64,000 nt of DNA, taken from assembly GCA_021371935.1 (NCBI GenBank), contig JAJFVF010000019.1:87268-151267 (forward strand), given 5' to 3'. The DNA is from a bacterium (GTDB lineage: Bacteria > Armatimonadota > UBA5829). The position numbers and the translations under genes are program-made. Within the stretch, counting starts at the first letter, position 1. Every line of letters starts with the position of its first letter. Below are positions 3,370 through 50,203 of the stretch, piece by piece. The notes under the pieces are model-generated. The model made no database searches, was not told where the DNA came from, and saw only the letters and a list, made by a program, of their open reading frames with translations.

Positions 3370-5073
3370 TTGAGTCAAGTAATTTGGAAAGTAAAAGACT
3401 GCGATGAGCCTGCAGCGGTCCGGCTGCACGAACAGACCGGCGCATCTCCTGCGGTCTGCAAGCTGCTGGTCAGCCGCGGTGTCAAGACAGGCTCTGATTA
3501 CGACAGTTTTATGAACCCATCTCTTTCGCAGATGCACGATCCATATTTGCTTGCCGACATGGAGGAGGGCGTCGAGCGGCTGGCCGACGCGATTGTTTCA
3601 GGCGAAAAGATATGCGTTCACGGTGATTATGATGTGGACGGCATCACCAGCACAGCTTTATTGGTCAGGACACTGCGCGCACTCAAGGCGAATGTCGACT
3701 ATTTGCTTCCTCATCGTCAGAAGGACGGCTACGACATTAAGCCGTTTGCGATAGATGCAGCTGCGCAGAGAGGCTGTTCGCTGGTAGTAAGCTGTGACTG
3801 CGGCATAAACGCCGTCTCGACCGCTGAGCGTGCCAGGGAGCTTGGCATTGACCTGATTATAACCGACCACCATGACCCCGGCGCCCAGCTTCCCGATGCC
3901 GCCGCCGTGATAAATCCCAAGAGGCCGGATTCGCAGTATCCTTTTACGGGGCTTGCGGGCGTAGGAGTGGCCCTCAAACTTGCCCAGGGGCTTGTAAGGC
4001 TGCTCGGTCATGATGACGAGTCTTTCGTCTCTCGATTTGTCGATCTGGCGGCTCTTGGGACGGTTGCTGATGTTGTCCCATTGCTCGATGAGAACCGCAC
4101 GATAGTAAAGCTTGGCCTTGACGCCATAGCCACCAGCAAGAAGGTGGGTCTGAGGACCATGCTCAGGACCACCGGCCTTGAGGGCAAGACTATGACTGCA
4201 CATTATCTTGCCTATATTCTCGGTCCGCGGATCAATGCCGTGGGCAGGATGGATGATGCCGCCGCCGCGCTCCAGCTCCTGCTCACAAAAGATGATAAAG
4301 AGGCGTCTGAGCTGGCTTCGGCTATGGAGAGGCACAATTCCAACCGCAAGGTCGAGCAGGAAAAAATTCTGGAGCAGACGAATGTCCAGTTCGCAGATAG
4401 AGACTTGGCCTCTAGCCGTATTCTTGTGCTTTCGAGCGATGGCTGGAACCCAGGCGTAATAGGCATAGTCGCGGGCAAGATATGCGAGACCTACTGCTGC
4501 CCGGCTATCCTTATCGCTCGAGACGAATCGTCAGGTATGGGTGTCGGTTCGGCGCGCAGTATAGATGCTTTTCATATGCGCGATGCTCTCGCGCAGTGTT
4601 CGGACCTTTTTACCCATTTCGGCGGTCATGCTCTGGCTGCAGGCTTCACGATCCCACTTGAGAATATTGCGCCTTTTGAAGACCGGATCGGTACTCTTGC
4701 ACGCGAATCGATCTCAGATGAGGCGATGGTCCCGCGAATAGATATAGACACTCAGCTTGCGCCTGAGGATATTAATCGTAATCTAGCGGATATGCTGATG
4801 TGCATGGAGCCTTTTGGCGAAGGCAACCCCGAGCCTGTTTTCATGACCACCGGGCTGAAAGTCACCCATAAACAGAGGGTAGGGGACGGCTCTCATCTCA
4901 AGCTCAAAGTGCAGGGCAAAAATGGTCCCGCAATCGAGTGCATCGCGTTCAGAATGGGCGATCTTTGCGATGGGCTTGAGCTTGGCGGGAGCATAGATAT
5001 GTGTTACCATGTTAAGCTAAATAAGTTCAATGGCACCGAGTCGGTGCAGTTGGTGTGCAAGGCGATCAGGTAA
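3370..5073 (+). CDS. recJ: Single-stranded-DNA-specific exonuclease RecJ
   Basis: DHH/DHHA1 motifs (VHGDYDVDGITS, ITDHHD). TTG start with AGGA Shine-Dalgarno. Confidence 0.85.
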   Translation: MSQVIWKVKDCDEPAAVRLHEQTGASPAVCKLLVSRGVKTGSDYDSFMNPSLSQMHDPYLLADMEEGVERLADAIVSGEKICVHGDYDVDGITSTALLVRTLRALKANVDYLLPHRQKDGYDIKPFAIDAAAQRGCSLVVSCDCGINAVSTAERARELGIDLIITDHHDPGAQLPDAAAVINPKRPDSQYPFTGLAGVGVALKLAQGLVRLLGHDDESFVSRFVDLAALGTVADVVPLLDENRTIVKLGLDAIATSKKVGLRTMLRTTGLEGKTMTAHYLAYILGPRINAVGRMDDAAAALQLLLTKDDKEASELASAMERHNSNRKVEQEKILEQTNVQFADRDLASSRILVLSSDGWNPGVIGIVAGKICETYCCPAILIARDESSGMGVGSARSIDAFHMRDALAQCSDLFTHFGGHALAAGFTIPLENIAPFEDRIGTLARESISDEAMVPRIDIDTQLAPEDINRNLADMLMCMEPFGEGNPEPVFMTTGLKVTHKQRVGDGSHLKLKVQGKNGPAIECIAFRMGDLCDGLELGGSIDMCYHVKLNKFNGTESVQLVCKAIR

Positions 5074-5090
5074 TATCAGTGATAGTTCAG

Positions 5091-7301
5091 ATGGCCGATA
5101 TCGATTCTATAATCAGCAAGGTGTTGGAATATAATGACGCGGCGGATACGGATCTGATCCGCCGTGCATACGAGTTCGCATCTGTCGCTCATAAAGATCA
5201 GCTCCGCGAGACCGGTGACCCCTACATCACTCATCCTCTGGCGACCGCCGAGATTCTGACAGATCTCGAGATGGACACAGCCAGCATCGCGGCTGCTCTG
5301 CTCCATGACGTGGTCGAAGACCAAGACTATTCGATTGACGACATAAAGGATAAATTCGGTTCCGAGATAGCAGCGCTGGTCGACGGCGTCACCAAGTTGA
5401 AACTGGCCGATTTTGACGTTATGGATGATGCGCAGGAGCGCCAGGAGGTTCCGAAGAAGCGCCGTGCCGAGTTCAAGCGAAGCGCTGAGAACCTACGCAA
5501 AATATTCCTTGCCATGGCGCGCGATCTGCGTGTTATGGTCATCAAACTTGCCGACCGGCTGCACAATATGCGGACCCTGAGCGGTCTGCCTGAGGACCGT
5601 CAGAAGAAGGTGTCGCAGGAGACGATGCAGATATACGCTCCTCTTGCGCACAGGCTGGGTATCTGGAAGATCAAATGGGAGCTTGAGGACCTGGCGTTCA
5701 AGTATATTGAGCCGGAGGCCTATGCAAAGGTTGCGGATAAGGTCTCAGGCACGCGCGGCGACCGTGAGGACGACCTGGCCGAGGCCGTTGAGATGATCCA
5801 GAGACATCTGACCAAGGACGGCATTGATGCCACGATCCAGGCAAGGCCGAAGCATCTCTGGAGCATATATCAAAAGATGCTTCGTGAGGAAGTTGATTTC
5901 TCGGAGATATACGACCTTTCGGCAATCCGGGTTATCGTGAACAGGGTAGGCGAGTGCTATCATGCGCTGGGTCTGGTCCATGACCTTTGGATGCCGATCC
6001 CCGAGAGGTTTTCGGATTACATTGCAAAGCCCAAGTCGAACATGTATCAATCGCTGCACACCAAGGTGATCGGACCGAGGGGTGAGCCTTTGGAGGTGCA
6101 GATAAGGACCTGGGATATGCACAGGGTCGCTGACTTCGGTGTAGCTGCTCACTGGCAGTATAAGGAGCGTATGCGGTCGGGCGACGAGTTCGAGCGCAAA
6201 CTTTCGTGGCTGCGCCAGCAGCTCTTCGACTGGCAGTCCGACAGCAAGGATGCAGGTGAGTTCCTGCACTCGGTGATCAACGATCTGTTTACCGACCAGG
6301 TGTTTGTATTTACTCCACGGGGGGACGTTATTGACCTGCCGGCAGGCTCTACTCCAGTGGATTTCGCATATAGGATCCACAGCGATGTAGGCAACCACTG
6401 CGTCGGCGGCAAAGTAAACGGCCGGATCGTGCCTCTGACGTATAAGTTCAACAACGGCGACATAGTCGAGGTCATAACCCGGTCGAATGCACAGCCCAGC
6501 CTAGACTGGTTGGCATTTGTCAAAACTTCTCATGCCCGCAATCGTATAAAGGGTTTTTATAGGCGGGCACATTATGCCGAGTCTGTCACCAAAGGCCGCG
6601 AGATGCTCGACCGCGAGCTTGAGAAACTTGGTCATGAGCCCAAGGAACTGATAAAGGTCAGTGACATCACGGCAGTAGCCAAGGCGCTGAATTTGCAGAC
6701 TGAGGACGACCTGTATGCCGCGATAGGCTATGGCCATGTCGCGCTGGGCAGTGTGGTCAACAAGCTGAAAATACCTGAGCCGCCCAAGTCTGAGGCGCTG
6801 GTGATAGAGGCTCCCAAGTCCACTGGCAAGAGCAAACTCGCCGTCACCCTCGATGGGGTGAAAAACCTCATGATAACCCGGGCAAAGTGCTGCGCGCCGC
6901 TTCCGGGTGAGGAAGTTGTCGGCTATGTCTCCCGGGGTAAAGGCGTATCTCTGCATTCTGTGACATGCCCGAATGTCGCGGCCTATAGGGCGAGTGAGCC
7001 TGAGCGTCTGGTCGATATCAACTGGACCGAGGCCGATGGCGAGCGATATCCCACAAATATTGCGATACATGCCCTGAACCGCATGGGTCTGCTCAGTGAG
7101 ATTACGGCTATGTTTTCTGAGTCCAAGACAAACATAACTGGCGCCAAGGTCAAGACTATGCCTGACAAGACGGCGACAATCGATCTTACGGTCGATCTGC
7201 CGAATGTTCATGCGCTAAATGACCTTATGATCAAGGTCGGCAGCCTTTCCGATGTGCTCAAGATCGAGCGTGTGGCCGCCCACAGGTCAAAAAAAATTTG
7301 A
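5091..7301 (+). CDS. rel: Bifunctional (p)ppGpp synthetase/hydrolase RelA/SpoT
   Basis: HD hydrolase domain (HDVVED), synthetase domain, TGS and ACT C-terminal regions. Start placed at MADIDSII, after the recJ stop. Confidence 0.85.
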   Translation: MADIDSIISKVLEYNDAADTDLIRRAYEFASVAHKDQLRETGDPYITHPLATAEILTDLEMDTASIAAALLHDVVEDQDYSIDDIKDKFGSEIAALVDGVTKLKLADFDVMDDAQERQEVPKKRRAEFKRSAENLRKIFLAMARDLRVMVIKLADRLHNMRTLSGLPEDRQKKVSQETMQIYAPLAHRLGIWKIKWELEDLAFKYIEPEAYAKVADKVSGTRGDREDDLAEAVEMIQRHLTKDGIDATIQARPKHLWSIYQKMLREEVDFSEIYDLSAIRVIVNRVGECYHALGLVHDLWMPIPERFSDYIAKPKSNMYQSLHTKVIGPRGEPLEVQIRTWDMHRVADFGVAAHWQYKERMRSGDEFERKLSWLRQQLFDWQSDSKDAGEFLHSVINDLFTDQVFVFTPRGDVIDLPAGSTPVDFAYRIHSDVGNHCVGGKVNGRIVPLTYKFNNGDIVEVITRSNAQPSLDWLAFVKTSHARNRIKGFYRRAHYAESVTKGREMLDRELEKLGHEPKELIKVSDITAVAKALNLQTEDDLYAAIGYGHVALGSVVNKLKIPEPPKSEALVIEAPKSTGKSKLAVTLDGVKNLMITRAKCCAPLPGEEVVGYVSRGKGVSLHSVTCPNVAAYRASEPERLVDINWTEADGERYPTNIAIHALNRMGLLSEITAMFSESKTNITGAKVKTMPDKTATIDLTVDLPNVHALNDLMIKVGSLSDVLKIERVAAHRSKKI

Positions 7302-31540: not shown

Positions 31541-31562
31541 GGTCGGGGGCATTCTTGCCCAC
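31541..31562 (+). repeat. Degenerate GC-rich hairpin repeat GGTCGGGGGCATTCTTGCCCAC
   Basis: In the queC upstream region. Confidence 0.4.
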
Positions 31563-35801: not shown

Positions 35802-36035
35802 TCAATATCTGGAACCAACGCACCCAAAGTCGAGCCCATAATCCTGAAACCCGAGTGCATGGGCTGTGTGCAGTGATGCAATATTTGTGCGGTCCGCACC
35901 CCAGGTGGCTATTTTGCCGTTATCGAGGATGTATTTCACTGCTGCCGATACGGCGCTTTTTGCATATCCCATGCCTCGATATTCAGGCAGTGTCTGGATA
36001 GTAGGGTCCCATACGACATCAGACAGCGGCTTCAC
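35802..36035 (-). pseudogene. Truncated duplicate of the 3' end of the GNAT-like gene at 37067-37777
   Basis: The 77 aa align with the C-terminal 77 aa of the 236-aa protein at about 90 percent identity. The underlying DNA at 35822-36050 matches 37090-37320. No N-terminal part is present. Confidence 0.7.
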
Positions 36036-36221
36036 GCCCGCCTACGAGACCGGTTCGCCCGCATAGTTAGCAAGTCTCTTTCGCATGTGTGACACATTCA
36101 GCTCAACGGAGCCACAGTGTTGACATTATCCCGGTATAAATAACAGTTGCCAAGTGTTCAAGCTGATGTTATATTGTACAACTGGAAGTGTATGCTTGCC
36201 GGATGGGAAGGGAGAGAGATT

Positions 36222-36878
36222 ATGTATACAAGGTTGTGTTTACTGCTCATAGGTTTATTGTTTGTGTGTCTGCCGGTGACTGCTGCGACATATACCCAAT
36301 CTTTTACAGACCTCTGGAATGTAGGCAATGGAATATCCATTGTCAGTTGCTCAGGCACCCACTTTGCAAATACCGATATTTTGGATATGTTCGGCGCCAA
36401 TGGCAGTTACTATGTGCCAGAGAGAGGCAATACTCTATTTCGCGACGGGCAGCCACAAAACTATCGCCACTTTATTGAGTGGCAGATGCCAGGCAGCGTG
36501 ACGGTAGGTCGAATAGCGCTGTGGGCAGCCCACGATGGTGGTTCATGCGGGCGTTCTTTCAACAGATTCACACTAGAGGCTTGGAACAGCGCTGCGGGCG
36601 GATATGTTACTGTTTATGACACGCAAGTCGGTCTGCCATATACCTGGGTCGAAGGCAATGAAGGGCTTGTCGTTAACAAAACATTCGACACCCCGTTTAC
36701 CTCCAGCCTGTTCAGAGCCAGCTTCTACCAGGCGACCACCATACCGTATGCGTCCGGTCCCAGGATATACGAGCTTGACGCTTTTACAGCTCCGCCGTCT
36801 GTTCCTGAGTGGGGCTCTCTTGCTTTGGCCCTGCTGGGTTTGGTGCCTGCCGCACGTTTTGCCAGACGTAAAAAGTAA
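36222..36878 (+). CDS. PEP-CTERM sorting-domain secreted protein
   Basis: Signal peptide MYTRLCLLLIGLLFVCLPVTAA. C-terminus VPEWGSLALALLGLVPAARFARRKK has a PEP-like motif, TM helix and basic tail. Confidence 0.7.
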   Translation: MYTRLCLLLIGLLFVCLPVTAATYTQSFTDLWNVGNGISIVSCSGTHFANTDILDMFGANGSYYVPERGNTLFRDGQPQNYRHFIEWQMPGSVTVGRIALWAAHDGGSCGRSFNRFTLEAWNSAAGGYVTVYDTQVGLPYTWVEGNEGLVVNKTFDTPFTSSLFRASFYQATTIPYASGPRIYELDAFTAPPSVPEWGSLALALLGLVPAARFARRKK

Positions 36879-36993: not shown

Positions 36994-37069
36994 ACCCGCA
37001 TTATTCACGAGAAACGTGAATAATGCTCTTGGAGACCCGGATTATGCGGGAAGCGCATAATCCGGGCTA
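36994..37069 (+). repeat. ~75-80 bp double-hairpin element, forward orientation
   Basis: ACCCGCATTATTCACGAGAAACGTGAATAATGC plus CCCGGATTATGCGGGAAGCGCATAATCCGGG. Confidence 0.8.
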
Positions 37070-37777
37070 ACCACACTGTATGCAGACGCACCCGAAGTCA
37101 AGCCCATAATCCTGAAACCCGAGTGCATGAGCCGTGCGCAGTGATGCGATATTGGTACGGTCCGCGCCCCAGGTGGCTATTTTGCCGTTATCGAGGATGT
37201 ATTTCACTGCTGCCGATACGGCGCTTTTTGCATGTCCCATGCCTCGATATTCCGAGAGAGTCTGCACCGTCAGGTCCCAGCCGACACCAGACAGTGGCTT
37301 CACTCCTGCCCACGAGACCACTCTGCCGTCCAAAATCTGACCGAATACCCTGCCTCCCCATTTGTTGTAGATACCGACAGCAATTTCGTCCATGTCGGTC
37401 ACATCGCGCACGTCGCCATTTGTCTGGTCAACAAAAGTTTCTCTGTCACAGTAGAGTCTGCACCCCTCGAACCAGAACTCAGGCTGTATGACAGGCGTCA
37501 ATGCAGCCTCAAGTGCCCGAGATGCATTTTCGTCAAGTGTTTTTGAGCCGATCAGCGCATTAGCGGCCGCTTCGTATAGATCGGGCAATACTGACACCAC
37601 CGCTCCAGTCCCTTTGCCTATCGAAAAGAGCGCAAGCGGCGCGCCCTTTGCGAACCTTATTCCGGTAATCTTTTCGCATTTGACGACCACCAGCCTGCCC
37701 GAGTTGAGATCATCCGGTGTGCATCCCAGTGCGGACGAGTAAAATTTGTCCAGTTGCATCACTGTATCGTTTGCCAT
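37067..37777 (-). CDS. GNAT-like acetyltransferase-fold protein (C-terminal domain)
   Basis: C-terminal GNAT-like motif EYRGMGHAKSAVSAAVKYILDNG. Last gene of the 37067-42102 operon. Confidence 0.55.
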   Translation of the reverse strand: MANDTVMQLDKFYSSALGCTPDDLNSGRLVVVKCEKITGIRFAKGAPLALFSIGKGTGAVVSVLPDLYEAAANALIGSKTLDENASRALEAALTPVIQPEFWFEGCRLYCDRETFVDQTNGDVRDVTDMDEIAVGIYNKWGGRVFGQILDGRVVSWAGVKPLSGVGWDLTVQTLSEYRGMGHAKSAVSAAVKYILDNGKIATWGADRTNIASLRTAHALGFQDYGLDFGCVCIQCG

Positions 37778-37778
37778 G

Positions 37779-38807
37779 TCAATCCCTATACCACATCCTG
37801 TGCATCAGGTCGGCCATAGTCAATAGGTCGTGGAGGTTATGTGTCAATATCTGCGCTATCTTGCATGCGTCGCCCGTCCGCACGAAGTCATCATATGCTC
37901 TTGGAATCTCTGCCCCAGGTATATCGTCCTCGCGAGACCGCCCGCACACCATCTGTTCAAGCGTCTGCAGCCTGCAGTTGGGCAGATCACGCTTATATAT
38001 GCGTCTTGCCTCATGGAGCATATCGAGATGAAACTCAGGCACCGGCAGCTTTATGCCTTTTGCAGTTGCTCTATTTGCCAGAAACGGCATATCGAAGCAC
38101 TTGCCGTTGAATGTCACGACCATCCTGGCATCTTTTAGCCTATGGGCAAATGCCGAGACTATACCGGTCTCCTCGGAGTAATCGCGCGCGAAATATTGTC
38201 TGAATGTCAGACCATTGGAGGTGCACTCCATTGTCCCGATCAGGAACACGGGCGTCATGTTCAGCCCGGTGGTTTCGAGGTCCAGAAAGATGATTTCTTC
38301 AGGAGATATCTTCTCGGATTTGCATGCGCGAGCAAATCTCTCGACGGCTTCTCCGTCAGGATATCCAGTCAGCCGGACGAACCTTCTATACATCACATCC
38401 GCGCTCGCATCCAGTTCGACCGCAGGCTTTTCGATCAGATAATACCCGTCTCCCGACACAGACTGTGCCTCGATACCTTCTATCACATCCTCCAGAACTA
38501 CATTGCCTTTAGTGCTCATAGATTCGTCAAAGGGCGCTGTCAAAGTCTGGATAGCGTGGGGGATTTCTGTTTCTTTGATAGTCGGGGGTATTCCTGCCCC
38601 CGACTCCTCTTCTCGGGCATTCTTGCCCGCAGAGCCTTTGCAATTTGGGTCTTTCTCAGCATCCTGAGCTTTGTCTAGGGATGCTGACAATATCCCGACA
38701 GCTGTGGAAATTCCTACCTCTTTCTTTTCCAGAGTAGACAGGGAATTTCTCATAGGCTGCCCGTTCATAGCCTCTATCCGGCTTTTGAGGTCACCTGGAG
38801 CCATCAT
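37779..38807 (-). CDS. RNase-H-like 3'-5' exonuclease (YprB/PolB-exo-like, COG3359-type)
   Basis: IIFLDLETTGL (exo I-like) and FNGKCFDMPFL motifs. The start overlaps the upstream stop in an ATGA coupling. The N-terminal ~96 aa are low-complexity and the DNA there carries a GC-hairpin REP copy in frame. Alternative start at Met97 (about 38519). Confidence 0.6.
   Translation of the reverse strand: MMAPGDLKSRIEAMNGQPMRNSLSTLEKKEVGISTAVGILSASLDKAQDAEKDPNCKGSAGKNAREEESGAGIPPTIKETEIPHAIQTLTAPFDESMSTKGNVVLEDVIEGIEAQSVSGDGYYLIEKPAVELDASADVMYRRFVRLTGYPDGEAVERFARACKSEKISPEEIIFLDLETTGLNMTPVFLIGTMECTSNGLTFRQYFARDYSEETGIVSAFAHRLKDARMVVTFNGKCFDMPFLANRATAKGIKLPVPEFHLDMLHEARRIYKRDLPNCRLQTLEQMVCGRSREDDIPGAEIPRAYDDFVRTGDACKIAQILTHNLHDLLTMADLMHRMWYRD
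38581..38604 (+). repeat. GC-rich hairpin repeat GTCGGGGGTATTCCTGCCCCCGAC
   Basis: Read directly. Lies inside the 5' part of the exonuclease ORF, with a degenerate second copy at about 38612-38630. Confidence 0.7.
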
Positions 38808-40297
38808 GATTCCTCATATTTCTCACCGGTCCTCAGGCAAATCTCAGCCTTGGCGAGCTGCCTGCCTATATACATCGCGTGATTGATGTCCGATATCGCG
38901 CAGTCGCGGTTGATCTCATGCTGAACCCTCTCAGCTTTTGCTGATCGATACTCATGCAAAAGTATGCCATTATTGTCCATATGACGGACTACAATCAGCC
39001 CATCTTCCAGGCTCACCATAAACTGCCCGTTGTCGTCCATATCCAGCGAGAAGCCCTTGGAGTTTGCCACGCGCACAGCGGCGTCATATTTTGCCGGGTC
39101 CACGCTTATCGAGTGACTGATGACCGTCAGCGGCCCGACCGGAATGCCCGTTTCTTGCGAGACAATCTGCTGAGCCTTCATAAGGCCATAAACATTCTTG
39201 AGCCATGCATCCAGAGCATTGTGTGTGCGGTATGTCGCGGTGAGGGTCAACTGATCGTCGAACACCCTGAAAAAAAGCGAGACCATACATGGCGCATCAT
39301 CCGCATCGATATCGTGATGGCTGTCCCACAGCGCCAGGTAACAGTCTCTGTCCTGAGGGTTGGCTTTCAGCCGCATGGCGAATTTTTTGAGTGCATCAAA
39401 CCCGAAATACTCCCGAATCCTGTTTCCGTATGTATATGAATGCTCATCAGGCAGCGGACCCAGCAGCATGTCGTGTTGATACTGCATAAGTTCCGAGCGT
39501 GAGAAGTTATACTTATCTAGACTCTCCTCGTCATCATCCTGAGGATGCCGGAGAACCACTCGCACATTCTGAAGCTCCTGCCTGTCACCCTTGCGCAGGT
39601 GAACCAGGTGACCGAACCGCACCAGTCTGAATATCAGTTCGCGCCAGGCCTCAAGTGGAGTGTCCTTGACGATATTGTGGTTTTGCGGCAGACTGGGATA
39701 GTTGCTGACCTCCACCTCAGGCAGCTCGACCTCTACCCGGTCACCGACAATCGTCTCGCCCAGGCTGAACGAGTGTATAACCCTACACAAGTTATCGCGT
39801 GATTCATGATCTCGTAAGTCGCCAAGATGGACTATCCGCGGCACCACCTCGAAGTCATCGGGCGATACCAGGTCGTCTATTATCCGGGTCCTGCCTTTGA
39901 TCCGGGTCACAGTCTCACCCAGGCTGATGGATTTTTCCAACCCGTCATGAAAGAATGCCATCAAGTCCTCAGCTGACCCGGATTTGTCCGCGCCGCATAT
40001 AATGAGATATCTTATCTGCGGGTTATAGAGCAGGTTTCTGAGCAGATGGGGGATTCCGTTGCCGAAGAGGTTGCCCATAACGGCGATTTTGGACGTTTCA
40101 GGAGCAGTGTCTATGCCCAAGTTTGTCAAAGTTTGCTCGACAAACTCTATCTTGCTCCAGAGAGTAATAATCCCGATGCGCCCCCTGGGGTTCACAACTT
40201 TCAGCTTGCTGGCGTAGTGCAGGGGGATAAAATCCATCTCGCCGTCTTGCGCATCATTTCGCTGCATTTGTAAAATGACCTCTTGGTCCCCCGACAT
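38804..40297 (-). CDS. Two-domain protein with C-terminal thymidylate-synthase/dCMP-hydroxymethylase fold
   Basis: C-terminal half aligns by eye to ThyA: WRELIFRLVRFGH ~ IHELLWFLQGDTN; CYLALWDSHHD...APCMVSLFFRV ~ RIIVSAWNVGEL...APCHAFFQFYV with catalytic Cys in P-C context; LTLTATYRTHNAL..KNVYG ~ LSCQLYQRSCD..FNIAS. N-terminal ~230 aa are an unknown domain. Start is ambiguous: Met at 40297, 40267 or 40237. Confidence 0.6.
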   Translation of the reverse strand: MSGDQEVILQMQRNDAQDGEMDFIPLHYASKLKVVNPRGRIGIITLWSKIEFVEQTLTNLGIDTAPETSKIAVMGNLFGNGIPHLLRNLLYNPQIRYLIICGADKSGSAEDLMAFFHDGLEKSISLGETVTRIKGRTRIIDDLVSPDDFEVVPRIVHLGDLRDHESRDNLCRVIHSFSLGETIVGDRVEVELPEVEVSNYPSLPQNHNIVKDTPLEAWRELIFRLVRFGHLVHLRKGDRQELQNVRVVLRHPQDDDEESLDKYNFSRSELMQYQHDMLLGPLPDEHSYTYGNRIREYFGFDALKKFAMRLKANPQDRDCYLALWDSHHDIDADDAPCMVSLFFRVFDDQLTLTATYRTHNALDAWLKNVYGLMKAQQIVSQETGIPVGPLTVISHSISVDPAKYDAAVRVANSKGFSLDMDDNGQFMVSLEDGLIVVRHMDNNGILLHEYRSAKAERVQHEINRDCAISDINHAMYIGRQLAKAEICLRTGEKYEES

Positions 40298-40874
40298 TCT
40301 GGAAACCGGTATTGAAGTCCCTGTATAGCGACTTGTAGTTCTTAATACGATGCCACTTCTTAATATATCCCTCAGGCAGGTCCTGCACGATCTCGACGTC
40401 GTCCCAACCATTCACCAACGGAAACGCATAATACGGGTACTTCGCGGGCACGTTCTTTGCATAAACCACCTGTATCGGCGAGCGCTCCATCCGCGCCAGA
40501 TACACACGATGCATGCCGTCGTTGAGTATCTTAACCGTGCTGTCGTCTGCTTCGTGCGATTCTTCTATTACAGGCGGAAGGACATCGATCGGGTCGTCAT
40601 AGTCCTTGAGCCAGATCGTCGCATAACCGTCGAGCTTGAACAGATCGACCCCATGCTCCTTAAGTGCCCATCGCAAATCGCGGACTTTCATAATCTCGCA
40701 TGTAAGCACATACCTCTGCGCAGGCGCGATCTCGTCAGTATGCAGAGTCGGTATTGTAATGTCAGCTTCAACGTATGGCAGGTCATCCGGGTGTGTAAGC
40801 ATGCTGACTCTGCGCATATTTTCCAGCAGTTCGTCGATATTATGTCTTTGGACTTTGACTATCTCCATTCTCAT
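40254..40874 (-). CDS. Hypothetical protein with ParB/sulfiredoxin-like motif
   Basis: VKILNDGMHRVYLAR resembles the DGHHR core of ParB/Srx-fold nucleases. Confidence 0.5.
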   Translation of the reverse strand: MRMEIVKVQRHNIDELLENMRRVSMLTHPDDLPYVEADITIPTLHTDEIAPAQRYVLTCEIMKVRDLRWALKEHGVDLFKLDGYATIWLKDYDDPIDVLPPVIEESHEADDSTVKILNDGMHRVYLARMERSPIQVVYAKNVPAKYPYYAFPLVNGWDDVEIVQDLPEGYIKKWHRIKNYKSLYRDFNTGFQNVGGPRGHFTNAAK

Positions 40875-40897
40875 TTCTCCTCATTTGTTTTCTGATG

Positions 40898-40920
40898 GTC
40901 GGGGGTATTCCTGCCCCCAA
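40898..40920 (+). repeat. GC-rich hairpin repeat GGTCGGGGGTATTCCTGCCCCCAA
   Basis: Intergenic between the HAD and ParB-like genes. A second small hairpin TTGCAGGGCATTCCTGCAA follows. Confidence 0.65.
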
Positions 40921-40982
40921 CCTATGTATTGCAGGGCATTCCTGCAACTTATTGGCTTGGAAATCGAAAGCAGCCTATCAAG

Positions 40983-41660
40983 TTATATACCAATCACCGC
41001 TGATGCCACCTGCGAAATATCTGCAGTTGTAGCAGTCGGCACGAGACAATGCCCGTTCAGAATCTTTATTATATATTCAGCCTCACGATCGGGTCTGGCA
41101 AGCACCCATATTGCTTTCATGCCCATTTCGAGCGCAGGCCGGATATCGTGAGTATATGTATCACCTATCATAACGCACTCACCCGGTTCCACGCCCAGTT
41201 CTTTCACCACAAGCCCAAAATTGTATTTATCGGGTTTGCGCGATCCCGACAAACAGCTCAGCACAATGGCATCGGATGCTGCCACGACCTCCGGCAGCGC
41301 CTTTGTGACGCTTTCAAAGTAAGGGTTCCAGATGTCCGAGAGCAGCCCGATCATCATCCCGCGAGCCTTGAGAGCCAGCACGCTCTCTTTGGCTCCGTCG
41401 AGAGCCTGTGCAGCGCATATTTGCGACTGCCACAACTCGTGGATTTCAGAGACGGCATAATCGCTGAGCCGTCCATATTCGCATGCGAGCGCATCACAGA
41501 CCTGCCCGGCTGATTTCAGGTCGTTTTTCATTATTATATCGCTCACCCTTGTCGGCGAGGAGCCTTCGATCAGTTGTGCGATAATTTTGTTTGGGGCGAT
41601 AGGCGGGCCTGTGACCAGCGTTGCGCCGATATCGAAAATAGCAGCCTTAACCGACGTCAT
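40983..41660 (-). CDS. HAD-superfamily hydrolase (phosphatase)
   Basis: Motif I AIFDIGATL (DxG nucleophile), motif II SD, motif III K...GD. Confidence 0.65.
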   Translation of the reverse strand: MTSVKAAIFDIGATLVTGPPIAPNKIIAQLIEGSSPTRVSDIIMKNDLKSAGQVCDALACEYGRLSDYAVSEIHELWQSQICAAQALDGAKESVLALKARGMMIGLLSDIWNPYFESVTKALPEVVAASDAIVLSCLSGSRKPDKYNFGLVVKELGVEPGECVMIGDTYTHDIRPALEMGMKAIWVLARPDREAEYIIKILNGHCLVPTATTADISQVASAVIGI

Positions 41661-42102
41661 TTGGCCACTCTACAACTTCCACTCCGCACTTTTCGAGCAG
41701 ACGTATACCGTTCGATCCGCCCTTGTTGTCGCGCTTGACCACACAGCGTGCAATGCCTGAGGATATCATCAGTTTTGCGCATGTAATGCACACGTCTGCA
41801 TTCACATATAGAGTTGCGCCCTCAAGGGCAAGGCCGCGTTTAGCGCACTGGCATATGGCGTTTTGCTCAGCGTGCACACACACCTTAAACTCTTCAGTCC
41901 CGGCCTTGTCTTTAAGGCAGATGCCGGTATCGCAGCAGTGTTCATGCCCGCTGGGAACGCCGTTATAGCCGTGCGAGAGTATTCTGTGGTCGAAAGTTAT
42001 CACAGCCCCAACATGCTTTCTAAGGCAGGTCGAACGCCTCGCGATGATATCCACCACTTCCATATAGACTTGATCGAAAGATGGACGGTCAGACACACTC
42101 AT
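41647..42102 (-). CDS. Deoxycytidylate (dCMP) deaminase, ComEB-type
   Basis: Zinc motif VHAEQNAI and PC..CAK pattern (ADVCITCAKLMISSGI), RSTC near the N-terminus. First gene of the minus-strand operon. Confidence 0.7.
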   Translation of the reverse strand: MSVSDRPSFDQVYMEVVDIIARRSTCLRKHVGAVITFDHRILSHGYNGVPSGHEHCCDTGICLKDKAGTEEFKVCVHAEQNAICQCAKRGLALEGATLYVNADVCITCAKLMISSGIARCVVKRDNKGGSNGIRLLEKCGVEVVEWPNDVG

Positions 42103-42371
42103 AACCTCTGCTCATGTAGTTTGAATATTCTATCAGGCAGCGTCGATATGCGCAATGACTTAAGGGGGGTGCGTTGTCCGTATCAAATGTGGGGGCATGT
42201 TGTCGACTGATGATGCATAAAAAACTCGAAACAAGTCGGACACTGACTTGTAACAATATATAAACTTAACCGTAACCAGCGCGGCTTATCCTACTATTGT
42301 AGGTTACAAAAAGCCGCTGATATAGCGGGGTAACCGCTCAAACTGTCTCGTTATAGGAGGAATGGAAGGAA

Positions 42372-44580: not shown

Positions 44581-44639
44581 GCGCTTCCTATATTGACCAG
44601 TCAATCGCTAATGTGATAACATATAACGAAGTAAATAAT

Positions 44640-44932
44640 AGACACAGGCGATGATGAGGACAAGTAAGTCGTATTGAGGCCGGCCACAGAGACCCTGCAC
44701 AGGCTGAAAAGCGGGGGCGGCGCATATGACCCAAGCTCACCTCGGAGCCGGCAAAAGAAAACCGATTTAGTAATCTGCACAAGATAATCTATATATAATC
44801 GGTTAGTAGAATTGCCCGGGCTGCGCCCGTTACAGCGTTTGAGGGTCTGTGGAGCAATTATGCGCCGCAGGCTGAACCAGGGTGGTACCACGAAACCTCT
44901 CGTCCTTGGGATGAGGGGCATTTTTTGTAACA
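44640..44932 (+). promoter_or_regulatory. Probable T-box riboswitch leader upstream of ilvD
   Basis: AACCAGGGTGGTACCACG at 44874-44892 matches the T-box consensus AGGGUGGUACCGCG at all but one position. It is followed immediately by a 10-bp hairpin CCTCTCGTCC/GGATGAGGGG and a TTTTTT tract. About 230 nt of structured leader lie upstream and contain AGAGA. Confidence 0.55.
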
Positions 44933-44942
44933 GGTGATGATC

Positions 44943-46622
44943 ATGAGAAGCGACGTGTTGAGAACAGGAATGGAAAGAGCGGCAGGCCGTGCGCTGCTCA
45001 AGGCGATGGGCTATATCGATGAGGAAATATACAGTCCGCTGGTCGGCATTGCCAATTCGTGGAACGAGGTTGTGCCGGGGCATATCCATTTGGATAAGGT
45101 TGCCGACGCAGTGAAGGCCGGCGTGCGGATGGCGGGCGGCACGCCTATGGAGTTCGGCGTGATTGGTGTCTGCGACGGCCTGGCGATGGGTCATGAGGGC
45201 ATGAAATATTCTCTGGTCACACGTGAACTCATTGCCGACTCGATCGAGTGTATGGCCAAGGCGCATGCGTTCGATGCGCTGGTCCTGATTCCCAACTGCG
45301 ATAAGATCATACCGGGTATGCTGATGGCTGCTGCGCGTGTCAATATCCCGACCATAATAGTCAGCGGCGGTCCGATGTTGCCCGGTCGATATAAGGGCAA
45401 AAATATTTCGGTCACTCAGATGTTCGAGGGTGCAGGCTCGGTTCTCGGCGGCAAGATCACCGAGCAGGAACTTGCCGAGATGGAAGAGGTCGCATGTCCC
45501 GGCTGTGGAAGCTGCGCCGGAATGTTCACGGCCAACTCCATGAACTGCCTCACCGAAGCGTTGGGCATGGGTATGCCCGGCAACGGCACAATTCCCGCTG
45601 TGATGGCCGGGCGAATCAGGCTGGCCAAGCAGGCCGGTATCAAAGTGATGGAGCTTCTCGACAAAGACATCAAGCCGCGCGACATCATGACGGGGGCAGC
45701 GTTCAAGAACGCTCTTGCGGTGGATATGGCGCTCGGCTGCTCCACCAACACCACTCTGCACGTGCCCGCAATCGCGCACGAGGCCAAGGTGGATTTTAAT
45801 ATAGATATGTTTAATGACGTCAGCAAGAAGACACCTCATTTGGTGACTCTAAGCCCGTCGGTTGCATATCCGGATCAGCAGATAACCCACCATGTTCAGG
45901 ATCTGGACGAGGCAGGCGGCATCCCGGCTGTCATGAAAGAGCTGAGCAAGAAGGGTCTGATAGAGGAGTCTGCGATTACGGTGACTGCCGCAACCGTCGG
46001 CGAAAACATCAAAGACGCGCAGGTCAAGGATATGAGTGTCATTCATACCATCGATAAGCCCTATCATGAAGAGGGCGGGCTTGCCATATTAAGAGGCAAT
46101 CTTTGTCCTGACGGCGCAGTCGTCAAGCAGTCTGCGGTTGAGCCTGAGGCATGGGTCTTCGAGGGTCGTGCCCGAGTGTTTGAGTGCGAGGACGACGCTG
46201 TGAAAGAGCTGCTTGCCAAGAATGTGAGCAAGGGAGACGTGATAGTCGTGCGCAACGAGGGACCCAAGGGTGGACCAGGTATGCGCGAGATGCTCACCGC
46301 CACAGCGACAGTTGTCGGCCTTGGAATGGGCAAGGATGTGGCTCTTATTACGGATGGCCGGTTCTCCGGCGCATCACGTGGTGCGTGTATCGGCCATGTA
46401 TCGCCCGAGGGAGCGTCCGGCGGCCCGATAGGTCTTCTGAAAGACGGCGATATCATAAAGATTGACATACCCGGCAAACGGATGGATGTTATGCTATCCG
46501 ACGATGAACTCGAAGCGCGGCGCAAAGGCTGGGAAGCACCCGAGCCGCGGGCAAAGGAGGGATATCTCGCGCGTTACGCGCGCACCGTCGCCTCCGCTGC
46601 AAAAGGTGCCATCGTCGAATAG
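44943..46622 (+). CDS. ilvD: Dihydroxy-acid dehydratase
   Basis: [19 protein letters not shown] and SGGP motifs. Start placed at the third Met, which has AGGTGA Shine-Dalgarno spacing. Confidence 0.85.
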
Positions 46623-50177: not shown

Positions 50178-50203
50178 GGTCGGGGGTGTTCTTGCCCCCG
50201 ACC
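50178..50203 (+). repeat. GC-rich hairpin repeat GGTCGGGGGTGTTCTTGCCCCCGACC
   Basis: Between ilvC and the C_GCAxxG_C_C gene. Confidence 0.7.

Follow-up and report, generated by a model that had tools for sequence, protein, structure and literature searches.

A widely conserved four-gene module of an Armatimonadota bacterium may channel deoxycytidine nucleotides into thymidylate

Canonical thymidylate-cycle clusters (thyA/comEB/glyA/folA) of bacteria and T4-type phages supply dUMP, draw a one-carbon unit from serine via a reduced pterin and produce dTMP. In canonical ThyA, the Glu58/Trp80/Trp83 helix, Asp169 and His207/Tyr209 serve folate positioning, proton relay and 3'-OH binding. Classical hmU phages such as SPO1 employ a deaminase, a nucleotidase-like HAD, a kinase-like protein and a thymidylate synthase (TS)-fold enzyme. 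In phage PaMx11, a 5-hmdU DNA kinase and an amino-acid:DNA transferase adjoin the hydroxymethylase. Moreover, the phage ParB-like protein 5mYOX-ParB acts on a thymine dioxygenase as its obligate activator, and mutations in its NTP site do not markedly impair activation (PMC13229309); the fold of ParB CTPases is said to be a versatile NTP switch (PMC12704722).

The locus analyzed here is chromosomal and lies in the window, a 64,000-nucleotide stretch of the genome of an Armatimonadota bacterium. The first-pass annotation had placed six ORFs on its minus strand and read them as one transcription unit combining pyrimidine-nucleotide and DNA-directed functions. The coordinates of all six hold (Table 1), as do the 14-nt overlap between the deaminase and HAD genes (41647/41660), the ATGA overlap between the ThyA-like and exonuclease genes (38804/38807) and the 1-nt gap between the exonuclease and GNAT genes (37777/37779); the domain calls were essentially right, each of the six being backed by Pfam. 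The claim of a single unit stands with regard to the packing, but promoter and terminator scans of the locus gave no more matches than shuffled sequence, and we therefore infer co-transcription from the spacing alone. One start had to be moved: The longest ThyA-like ORF (start 40411) would overlap the ParB-like gene by 158 nt, and an alignment with 26 homologues together with gene calls in relatives places the start at 40267. This creates a second 14-nt overlap, with the ParB-like gene (ParB-CE), which is also found in two related loci (L001 and L011) and amounts to translational coupling. The start of ParB-CE itself is probably 40868, as judged from the length of nearly all its homologues.

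Table 1. Coordinates of the genes, domains and repeats of the locus.
Feature	Position in window	Strand	Evidence
dCMP deaminase, ComEB-like, 151 aa, first core gene	41647..42102	-	Pfam PF00383
Atypical HAD-superfamily hydrolase, 225 aa	40983..41660	-	Pfam HAD families
REP-like hairpin in HAD/ParB-CE spacer	40888..40921	.	Repeat copy and folding
ParB-CE (PF24392), 204 aa, single ParB/sulfiredoxin-fold nucleotide-binding domain	40254..40868	-	
ThyA-like three-domain TS-fold enzyme, 487 aa	38804..40267	-	
N-terminal MtrA-like Rossmann domain of ThyA-like enzyme	39770..40216	-	
TS-fold catalytic core of ThyA-like enzyme, methanogen type	39053..39685	-	
C-terminal PterinBD-DUF4346 domain of ThyA-like enzyme	38813..39040	-	Pfam PF14251, E 1.2e-17
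RNase-H-like DEDD 3'-5' exonuclease (PF13482), non-core	37779..38807	-	Pfam
GNAT acetyltransferase, non-core	37067..37777	-	Pfam GNAT families
Truncated duplicate (remnant) of GNAT 3' end	35818..36051	-	89% identity, GNAT Pfam models

A neighbourhood comparison across about 100 related loci reduces the conserved core to four genes, encoding the deaminase, the HAD protein, ParB-CE and the ThyA-like enzyme, the exonuclease and GNAT genes being lineage-specific add-ons. We found no published description of this four-gene set, which is previously undescribed, widely conserved and also present in some phages: The core or parts of it occur in Armatimonadota, Peptococcaceae, Nitrospirota, Thermodesulfobacteriota and real phage contigs. 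The order deaminase-HAD-ParB-CE-ThyA-like is seen in all 18 informative Armatimonadota loci and recurs with a dCTP deaminase in Nitrospirota and one Bacillota MAG, while Desulfobacterales and a 286-kb viral contig have HAD-ParB-CE-deaminase-ThyA-like. In Armatimonadota, 21/21 loci have a dCMP deaminase adjacent to ParB-CE and 20/21 have the HAD gene upstream of it; the counts for Peptococcaceae are 19/21 and 21/21, respectively. The earlier idea of a pyrimidine-deoxynucleotide module is accordingly sustained for four genes, whose recurrence spans phages and six or more phyla, and the arrangement indeed differs from the canonical dcd/thyA/tmk one. In Peptococcaceae, the module sits in a housekeeping block (sua5-rpiB-glyA-[module]-wecB-atp operon), with glyA, encoding serine hydroxymethyltransferase (SHMT), directly upstream in 17 of 19 loci; in another lineage, a 40%-identical ParB-CE is immediately followed by glyA. 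This housekeeping neighbourhood points to ordinary thymidylate supply, and we assign a probability of roughly 55% to the reading that the four genes form a chromosomal operon channelling deoxycytidine nucleotides into thymidylate, with the exonuclease and GNAT genes as passengers.

Together with the ParB-like protein, the two add-ons had carried the DNA-directed half of the first-pass annotation, which had also treated all six genes as one module. Of 18 Armatimonadota loci, only six have the exonuclease (RNase_H_2, PF13482, E 4.6e-37, residues 173-338) after the ThyA-like gene, and only three (L013, L014 and L029) have GNAT; the remaining phyla sampled and the phage copies showed neither of them beside the core. 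The DNA-directed argument therefore rests on lineage-specific neighbours. Both are also less conserved than the core, with 39-60% (exonuclease) and 47-70% (GNAT) identity compared to 71-88% for ParB-CE at the same loci. If all six genes nevertheless formed one DNA-modification or DNA-directed module, exonuclease and GNAT would act on the DNA or nucleotide product of the core, as might be argued from the ATGA overlap and 1-nt gap that tie them to the ThyA-like gene and from the recurrence of the six-gene order in the three loci named above (in L029 at about 60% identity of the ThyA-like enzyme). This reading is largely refuted by the neighbourhood counts (exonuclease missing in 12/18, GNAT in 15/18 Armatimonadota loci), and we regard it as very improbable; moreover, PF13482 includes the DNA-repair exonuclease MrfB/YprB, an enzyme unconnected with nucleotide synthesis.

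The REP-like element GGTCGGGGGTATTCCTGCCCCC occurs in four copies in the window versus zero expected, and the copies fold stably (-15.5 to -28.7 kcal/mol). The hairpins described earlier as intergenic are thus real repeats, but only the copy at 40897 is intergenic (-18.5 kcal/mol, z -4.2), lying in a HAD/ParB-CE spacer of about 110 nt that measures about 11-29 nt in relatives, whereas the copy at 38580 lies inside the exonuclease ORF, within its first approximately 120 codons, which are not conserved. The suggested rearrangement junction holds in part: Synteny with the closest relatives ends at the GNAT stop codon, and nearby sits a 234-nt copy of GNAT positions 37086-37319 that is absent from relatives and contains a 77-aa ORF matching GNAT Pfam models.

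Turning to the core proteins, the deaminase matches dCMP_cyt_deam_1 with an E-value of 3.5e-19, shows HAE and CxxC zinc motifs in its translation, and aligns with the NCBIfam ComEB model TIGR02571 (E 1.3e-31) at 109.6 bits, below the cut-off of 219.45. Because a dCMP deaminase or, in Nitrospirota and some Bacillota, a dCTP deaminase occupies the same slot depending on lineage, the conserved trait would be the supply of dU nucleotides. The HAD protein (Pfam HAD families, E 5e-13) belongs to a small dedicated subfamily with 138 matches in 5.8 billion proteins. HAD phosphatases display DxDx(T/V) as motif I; every aligned module copy has D-I-G-[AS]-T instead, so that the general acid Asp+2 is replaced by Gly, while motifs II-IV are intact (Ser, Lys, GDxxxD). 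By these motifs, it is predicted to be a superfamily member but not a textbook phosphomonoesterase.

ParB-CE matches only the Pfam family 'ParB CE domain' (PF24392, E 3e-57) and exhibits the alpha/beta fold and G-x-[HR]-R phosphate-binding motif of the ParB/Srx superfamily. Its sequence contains two boxes, one ParB-like (P-x-Q-R) and one Srx/SerK-like (D-G-x-H-R), whose roles we read from published work (PMC13229309); a Q, D, H, R and E are invariant. In structure, it comes closest to sulfiredoxin and the free-serine kinases SerK and SbnI. The former label 'ParB/Srx-like nuclease-fold' is consequently right about the domain but not about the nuclease. From these neighbours ParB-CE differs in showing no detectable sequence similarity to them, in having no conserved Cys, in its context of pyrimidine nucleotides rather than serine/cysteine metabolism or peroxiredoxin repair, and in a unique conserved C-terminal segment rich in aromatic and basic residues (YPYYAFP...KKWHR...LYRDFN). 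A partition-type ParB, defined by a parS-binding HTH domain, a C-terminal dimerization domain and a GERRxR box, was rejected: The protein is a single domain with G-M-H-R in place of that box, and no ParA gene was found beside it in the loci examined.

What such a protein does in the module can be approached from its distribution. It is mostly found without an adjacent ThyA-like gene in Peptococcaceae (21/23) and Thermodesulfobacteriota (15/18) and is therefore not strictly dependent on the ThyA-like enzyme; it stands alone in Desulfacinum and several phages, where stand-alone copies have no HAD partner, whereas two phage contigs (L096 and L099) carry it together with the ThyA-like gene and without the other two core genes. 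Both the missing ThyA-like neighbour and the missing HAD partner count against our preferred reading. The former also bears on the idea that ParB-CE is no enzyme: As a switch that senses nucleotides, or as an obligate activator subunit, it would bind a pyrimidine nucleotide (dCTP or dTTP) and toggle the ThyA-like enzyme and/or the deaminase. The activator role of 5mYOX-ParB (PMC13229309), the NTP-switch nature of the fold (PMC12704722), the translational coupling and co-transfer into phages with the ThyA-like gene, and the very strong conservation of ParB-CE (70-86% identity among homologues vs 60-83% for the ThyA-like enzyme) would fit such a switch; given that ParB-CE often occurs without the ThyA-like enzyme or deaminase and that its invariant residues resemble a working active site, we consider it quite doubtful. 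Alternatively, the path from dC to dT would be retained with ParB-CE as a non-orthologous thymidylate/dNMP kinase (dTMP to dTDP) and the HAD protein as a counteracting, pool-buffering nucleotidase, in keeping with phages, which often encode a dNMP kinase of their own near their TS, dCMP deaminase and DNA polymerase (cf. L093, L096 and L099). We deem this unlikely: Most Peptococcaceae loci read glyA-deaminase-HAD-ParB-CE and lack a TS, which makes a dTMP kinase a less obvious partner, and ParB-CE still has the hydrolysis-box Q of ParB.

The ThyA-like enzyme is where the nature of the product would be decided. Pfam recognizes Thymidylat_synt, which barely passes (25.7 vs 24.3 bits), PterinBD-DUF4346 and, weakly, MtrA; the nearest sequence family is the methanogen-type TS TIGR03283 (E 6.7e-33). 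Members of that family are single-domain methanogen proteins of about 200 aa that score above a curated cut-off of 174.55, and the ThyA-like enzyme reaches 113.9 bits. HMM searches thus reveal a methanogen-type core and no ordinary ThyA with an unrelated fusion. The extra domains are likewise not unrelated, MtrA and DUF4346 both belonging to pterin/methanopterin enzymology: According to the matching NCBIfam models, MtrA-like and dihydropteroate-synthase-like proteins also end in DUF4346. The cobalt ligands His84-Glu54 and the GAIPFxEN motif of corrinoid-binding MtrA were not found in the N-terminal domain, and that identity was rejected. Of the canonical active site, the window protein and four bacterial homologues aligned with E. 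coli ThyA keep the equivalents of Cys146, Arg21/126/166, Tyr94 and Asn177 and have T in place of Ser167; across 27 aligned sequences, P336-C337, R357 and N368 do not vary. Conversely, the protein shares with the methanogen type the deletion of the Glu58/Trp80/Trp83 segment, Asp169 is replaced by an invariant Asn, and the H-x-Y motif (His207/Tyr209) is missing. In structural comparisons, 9iqc (a flavin-dependent monooxygenase with the TS fold) and MilA (a CMP hydroxymethylase) come first, with true thymidylate synthases behind, and the longest phage alignment, to the TS of Methanobacterium virus PhiF1, is followed among cultured phages by dUMP hydroxymethylases of hypermodifying Pseudomonas phages (M6/PaMx11-type).

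These losses and rankings weigh against dTMP formation, and with several canonical residues gone the enzyme may be a hydroxymethylase or serve a modified-nucleotide role. The SPO1-type enzyme set has one counterpart for each of the four activities, which likewise speaks against the preferred reading. In a modified-pyrimidine pathway of this kind, the ThyA-like enzyme, which lacks canonical TS residues that help to position folate and transfer hydride, would hydroxymethylate dUMP, the deaminase would increase the dUMP supply, the HAD protein would clear competing dTMP or dUMP as a nucleotidase, and ParB-CE, whose structural neighbours SerK and SbnI phosphorylate a primary -CH2OH, would act as a kinase on 5-hmdUMP (yielding the diphosphate) or on its 5-CH2OH group, the product entering DNA or a metabolite; the phages that carry the module would fit as well. 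On the other hand, the best sequence family is a TS that necessarily makes dTMP in methanogens, the phage neighbourhoods (RNR, baseplate, terminase) are those of ordinary nucleotide supply, and the glyA and atp contexts in cultured Peptococcaceae are vertically inherited housekeeping ones; we know of no modified DNA reported for these carriers. Furthermore, phage thymidine hypermodification is marked by a 5-hmdU DNA kinase (PF18723/PF18748) and a DNA transferase encoded beside the hydroxymethylase: Among the six window proteins, Pfam gave no match to this kinase or to DNA transferases (ADDT, aGPT-Pplase), a glycosyltransferase is likewise missing here, and the recurrent neighbour clusters of related loci contain no hypermodification markers. 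The likeness to phage base hypermodification proposed at first is thus not borne out at the level of marker enzymes, and we judge a modified-pyrimidine pathway decidedly unlikely. A PADLOC search for anti-phage defence returned no system but only generic deaminase-domain and weak DEDDh matches.

For thymidylate supply, which we prefer, the following mechanism can be envisaged. The deaminase would generate a dU nucleotide, here dUMP by dCMP deamination, with a dCTP deaminase in this position in other lineages. The ThyA-like enzyme would then modify dUMP at C5, using the retained nucleophilic Cys, phosphate-binding Args, Tyr94-equivalent base and uracil-specifying Asn and bringing its own pterin-binding domain; the one-carbon donor would be a methylene-tetrahydropterin supplied by SHMT, and the product is most likely dTMP. 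ParB-CE and the atypical HAD protein would be accessory phosphoryl-transfer enzymes. Our single best guess, from pathway-hole logic alone, is that together they fill the missing step and produce from dCTP or dUTP the monophosphate required by the deaminase and the ThyA-like enzyme, as a functional analogue of dUTPase or the T4 dCTPase-dUTPase. The exonuclease and GNAT protein would stand outside this mechanism as co-transcribed passengers gained by one Armatimonadota lineage.

Compared with the known systems, the module shares with phages M6 and PaMx11 a nearby dCMP deaminase and a related TS-fold enzyme (31% identity over 109 aa); however, it is chromosomal, HMUDK and ADDT of PaMx11 are absent, and, unlike its TS-fold enzyme, that of PaMx11 has retained D169 and the E58 region. 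With methanogen-type TS (MJ0757 family, PhiF1 ORF59) it has in common the compact core and the Cys146, Arg166, Asn177 and Tyr94 equivalents, but it is borne by bacteria or phages, is extended at both termini and is paired with ParB-CE, which is not the neighbour of PhiF1 TS; the H207/Y209 motif, missing here, is kept by the latter, and the ThyA-like core differs further in its Asn at the D169 position. Like 5mYOX-ParB, ParB-CE is a ParB fold without DNA-binding domain that is present in phages and encoded beside a pyrimidine-C5 enzyme, whereas 5mYOX-ParB belongs to PF02195, has a C-terminal dimerization domain and serves an Fe/2OG dioxygenase acting on DNA (PMC13229309), the predicted partner of ParB-CE being a TS-fold enzyme acting on nucleotides. 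The logic proposed here is finally that of the canonical thymidylate-cycle clusters, including the adjoining glyA in Peptococcaceae; in place of canonical ThyA and a recognizable DHFR, dUTPase and Tmk, the module employs its own TS-fold enzyme and two uncharacterized proteins, the atypical HAD and ParB-CE.

Between positions 37067 and 42102, the six minus-strand open reading frames described in the first-pass annotation, which had proposed them as a candidate pyrimidine-nucleotide or DNA-modification operon, are indeed present together with their junctions: a 14-nt overlap at 41647/41660, an ATGA overlap at 38804/38807 and a 1-nt gap at 37777/37779. Proteins were assigned by Pfam, NCBIfam, PDB and fold searches, using predicted models as structures, and the domain assignments of all six products were recovered with Pfam and NCBIfam profiles. 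The longest ORF of the three-domain thymidylate synthase (TS)-fold protein, here called ThyA-like, begins at 40411; an alignment of 26 homologues and the gene calls in relatives correct this start to 40267, which yields 487 aa and the 14-nt overlap with the upstream gene that relatives also have. For ParB-CE, a PF24392 protein of the ParB/sulfiredoxin fold, the second ATG at 40868 is probably the start because of its better AGGAG spacing and the resulting length of 204 aa, which is that of nearly all homologues. Scans of the cluster for consensus promoters and terminators gave nothing above shuffled sequence, so that the case for a single transcript comes from gene spacing.

Features of the cluster and its surroundings (window coordinates)
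Feature	Position	Strand	Evidence
ComEB-like dCMP deaminase	41647-42102	minus	Pfam, NCBIfam
HAD-superfamily hydrolase (atypical HAD)	40983-41660	minus	motif I D-I-G-[AS]-T
ParB-CE	40254-40868	minus	PF24392 'ParB CE domain', E 3e-57; model pLDDT 87.6
ThyA-like	38804-40267	minus	three-domain TS-fold protein; model pLDDT 84.4
RNase-H-like DEDD exonuclease	37779-38807	minus	PF13482, E 4.6e-37
GNAT	37067-37777	minus	Pfam
Truncated GNAT C-terminus (77 aa)	35802-36035	minus	
REP-like copy	31541-31562		stable hairpin on folding
REP-like copy	38580-38601		stable hairpin on folding
REP-like copy	40897-40918		stable hairpin on folding
REP-like copy	50178-50199		stable hairpin on folding

Four copies of a dispersed REP-like palindrome with the core GGTCGGGGG-N8-CCCCCGACC were counted in the window, where none would be expected. 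Such hairpins had been placed between the genes of the cluster, which holds for the copy in the spacer of ~110 nt separating the atypical HAD and ParB-CE genes, the only real spacer present, but not for the other local copy (38580), which falls in the exonuclease ORF, among its opening ~120 codons, a stretch that is not conserved. Since the same spacer measures just 11-29 nt in relatives, the element within it is an insertion. The 3' end of the GNAT gene (37086-37319) is duplicated 1.27 kb further on (35818-36051; 234 nt, 89% DNA identity), leaving a remnant that suggests a local duplication or rearrangement confined to this genome; the nearest relatives share nucleotide synteny only over 37085-42155. 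Full gene and remnant are separated by a plus-strand ORF (36147-36878) with a PEP-CTERM-like tail (VPEW...RRKK) and no Pfam match. Farther away, a 412-aa minus-strand ORF (44601-45839) antisense to ilvD (44934-46622, plus) is almost certainly spurious.

When one genome per GTDB species was scanned, ParB-CE turned up in just 82 species, a number from which more distant members may be missing because the scan was pattern-limited. Carriers belong to the Armatimonadota, the phylum of the source organism, and to the Abditibacteriota, Nitrospirota (magnetotactic and other), Nitrospinota, Peptococcaceae and relatives (including cultured Desulfofundulus, Desulfovirgula and Desulfocucumis) and Thermodesulfobacteriota (Desulfacinum, Syntrophobacterales, Desulfobacterales), and they include one Planctomycetota MAG.

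Genes neighbouring ParB-CE, counted at loci with enough flanking sequence; loci were recovered with patterns from close relatives, and counts depend on tblastn thresholds
Group	ThyA-like	Atypical HAD	dCMP deaminase	dCTP deaminase	glyA	Exonuclease	GNAT
Armatimonadota	18/18	20/21	21/21	0/21	0/19	6/18	3/18
Peptococcaceae and relatives	2/23	21/21	19/21	0/21	17/19	0/23	0/23
Nitrospirota/Nitrospinota	8/9	4/10	0/10	4/10	0/9	0/9	0/9
Thermodesulfobacteriota	3/18	2/16	3/16	0/16	0/14	0/18	0/18

From these counts it follows that the conserved core consists of four genes (deaminase, atypical HAD, ParB-CE and ThyA-like), whereas exonuclease and GNAT, which accompany a minority of Armatimonadota loci and none in the other groups counted, form a lineage-specific extension; the proposed six-gene module thus contracts to this core. 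In Peptococcaceae the unit is embedded in the block sua5-ywlE-rpiB-glyA-[unit]-wecB-atp operon, in Nitrospirota and one Bacillota MAG the order is dCTP deaminase-HAD-ParB-CE-ThyA-like, in a further lineage a 40%-identical ParB-CE lies between a canonical HAD and SHMT, and in Thermodesulfobacteriota ParB-CE is mostly solitary. Three apparent associations were discarded: a ParB-CE/ThyA-like fusion in Desulfovirgula (locus L057) is a longest-ORF artefact in high-GC DNA, the genes lying in different frames; the supposedly nucleotide-related neighbours of the solitary Desulfacinum ParB-CE turned out to be rsmE, ddl, an HD protein and an unassigned ORF that bears no relation to the ThyA-like protein; and two large neighbour clusters in high-GC Desulfacinum loci consist of spurious antisense ORFs. 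Flavoproteins of the FAD_oxidored family (PF12831) occur just downstream of the module in one Armatimonadota genome (L001, 9663-11390) and one Planctomycetota genome (L091, 10735-12180) and, in the Armatimonadota locus L004, on the other strand about 2.7 kb before it, and are possible redox partners; in L004 a PFL-like glycyl-radical enzyme (3632-5938) immediately precedes the module.

ParB-CE is translationally coupled to the ThyA-like gene and is under very strong purifying selection, with identities of 70-86% within the phylum, above those of the ThyA-like protein. Judging from its ParB-like P-x-Q-R and Srx/SerK-like D-G-x-H-R boxes, it almost certainly binds a nucleoside phosphate. Motif I of the atypical HAD reads D-I-G-[AS]-T in all module copies, whereby the usual Asp+2 general acid is replaced by glycine.

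By sequence family, the ThyA-like core comes closest to methanogen-type thymidylate synthase (TIGR03283; E 6.7e-33, under cut-off), and the protein ends in a PterinBD-DUF4346 domain, which according to NCBIfam models also terminates MtrA-like and dihydropteroate-synthase-like proteins. Its active site was compared by alignment with three references, E. coli ThyA, the TS of a methanogen virus and a dUMP hydroxymethylase from a phage: in E. coli ThyA numbering, the nucleophilic cysteine, Arg21, Arg126, Arg166, Tyr94 and Asn177, the residue specifying uracil over cytosine in the TS fold, are kept, and threonine occupies the position of Ser167. With this set, the enzyme is equipped for activating C5 in a nucleotide of the uridine type. 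In contrast to ThyA, an invariant asparagine replaces Asp169, the His207/Tyr209 pair is missing and the whole Glu58/Trp80/Trp83 helix is absent, as in the methanogen type; an equation of E220/W324 with E58/W80 was rejected because the alignment pairs W324 with W133 and the E58-W83 segment is absent. The fold of the MtrA-like domain was confirmed and the loops forming the MtrA cofactor pocket are strongly conserved, but the cobalt ligand His84 is an invariant serine, and neither Glu54 nor the GAIPFxEN motif is conserved (MtrA residues according to PMC4915002). Despite the conserved loops, the missing ligand network makes His-on cobalamin binding unlikely; cobalamin-dependent methyl transfer was rejected on this ground, apart from a faint prospect by way of His-off binding. 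In the fold search, the core best matched PDB 9iqc (also 9iqu and 9ir2), a TS-fold flavoenzyme deposited in 2025 as 'Monooxygenase dependent on riboflavin with dCMP and FAD', for which a literature search found no accompanying paper; the entry shows that a compact TS fold can take a flavin in place of folate. Two variant architectures were observed: in Abditibacteriota (P0053/P0062; L008, L009) a stand-alone 786-aa protein comprises one MtrA-like domain followed by two TS-fold and two DUF4346 stretches, an internal tandem duplication, while deaminase-HAD-ParB-CE genes lie in another MAG of that phylum (L032); and in Desulfobacterales (L086, 8509-9288; L088) a 259-aa TS-fold paralogue with no Pfam match sits upstream of HAD-ParB-CE-deaminase-ThyA-like, likewise carries asparagine at the D169 position and has the E. 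coli D169N mutant entry as its best PDB match.

The unit is probably a dC→dU→dT nucleotide supply operon in which the ThyA-like protein serves as C5 one-carbon transferase, with dTMP as its most probable product. Four observations favour this reading: two different deaminases can take the same slot, SHMT recurs as a linked gene, the methanogen-type TS is the closest family, and cultured anaerobes carry the unit in a housekeeping setting. The deaminase would convert the dC to the dU nucleotide, to whose C5 the ThyA-like protein would transfer a one-carbon unit. As written, the operon lacks a step from dCTP or dUTP to the monophosphate used by deaminase and ThyA-like protein; our leading, though tentative, idea is that ParB-CE together with the atypical HAD might supply it as a functional analogue of dUTPase or the T4 dCTPase-dUTPase. 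Alternatively, ParB-CE may be a thymidylate or dNMP kinase, may act in a pterin cycle, or may be an NTP-sensing activator subunit, for which a ParB-dependent phage thymine dioxygenase sets a precedent (PMC13229309).

More distant ParB-CE relatives (27-43% identity) occur on genuine phage contigs, in the order dCMP deaminase-DNA polymerase A-ParB-CE with a UvrD helicase next, or amid small ORFs immediately upstream of terminase and portal. The ThyA-like gene is accompanied by ParB-CE in phages as well: two contigs show baseplate genes-ParB-CE-two small ORFs-full-length ThyA-like (40% identical), one of them (L096) with a class II ribonucleotide reductase nearby, and a 286-kb viral contig shows HAD-ParB-CE-deaminase-ThyA-like; one further phage-like contig carries ParB-CE. 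The two small ORFs of L096 (4094-4865) weakly match phosphopantetheine-attachment (carrier protein) and cupin-like domains, and in L098 (11634-14114) the large terminase beside ParB-CE is split by an intein with a LAGLIDADG homing endonuclease. ParB-CE was found neither in cultured GenBank phages nor as a PHROGs family, and a BFVD search returned generic ParB/Srx matches only. PADLOC detected no defence system, and an anti-phage defence role was rejected on that basis.

Among cultured GenBank phages, the closest relatives of the ThyA-like core are the TS of the methanogen virus PhiF1, which gives the longest alignment, and dUMP hydroxymethylases from Pseudomonas phages of the M6/PaMx11 type. 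A ParB-CE beside the PhiF1 TS was dismissed, ORF60 of that virus being unrelated. Deaminase, HAD, kinase-like protein and TS-fold enzyme mirror the enzyme set of hmU phages, and the ThyA-like protein deviates from ThyA at residues important for folate positioning, for which reasons we retained the unlikely reading that it is a hydroxymethylase or that the unit is a modified-nucleotide pathway; against this speak its sequence family, the absence of all downstream hypermodification enzymes and the vertically inherited housekeeping context. In its specific form, which we regard as distinctly improbable, a dUMP hydroxymethylase-type enzyme would be paired with ParB-CE, which would act on that enzyme's product as a small-molecule kinase resembling serine kinases and sulfiredoxin. 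Free-living bacteria and carrier phages would then make a 5-substituted deoxyuridine nucleotide, or thymidylate would arise by a two-enzyme route without dihydrofolate reductase; in both cases the ParB fold would gain a new catalytic role. This could also explain why, to our knowledge, the methanogen-type thymidylate synthase has never been reconstituted on its own, nor its full reaction (Krone et al. 1994).

We found no description of the module in the literature, nothing on DUF4346, PterinBD or MJ0757, and only unrelated matches for 'ParB-CE'; recent ParB-fold papers (PMC13229309; the 2025 ParB-CTPase-fold survey PMC12704722) do not mention the family, nor does the survey mention thymidylate or deaminase contexts. 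The ParB-CE domain is already catalogued in Pfam, the protein is named 'hypothetical' in every source, and the ThyA-like protein appears only as 'thymidylate synthase' or 'DUF4346 domain-containing protein'. As a variant of thymidylate supply, the unit could realistically conceal new enzymology; it would make the methanogen-type enzyme accessible through a tractable bacterial counterpart, add new auxiliary nucleotide-metabolism genes to phages and correct the annotation of several hundred proteins labelled 'hypothetical protein' or 'DUF4346 domain-containing protein'. It differs from PaMx11, where the dUMP hydroxymethylase adjoins a 5-hmdU DNA kinase and an amino-acid:DNA transferase, in that the window holds nothing similar. 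Thymidylate synthesis belongs to the best-mapped parts of metabolism, and to its two known enzyme families, ThyA and ThyX, the module would add a third form, borne by bacteria and phages and distinct in architecture, whose methanogen-type core has pterin-binding and MtrA-like domains of its own and is joined by two dedicated partner proteins; in one of these the ParB/sulfiredoxin fold would be put to new use, on small molecules or in regulation.
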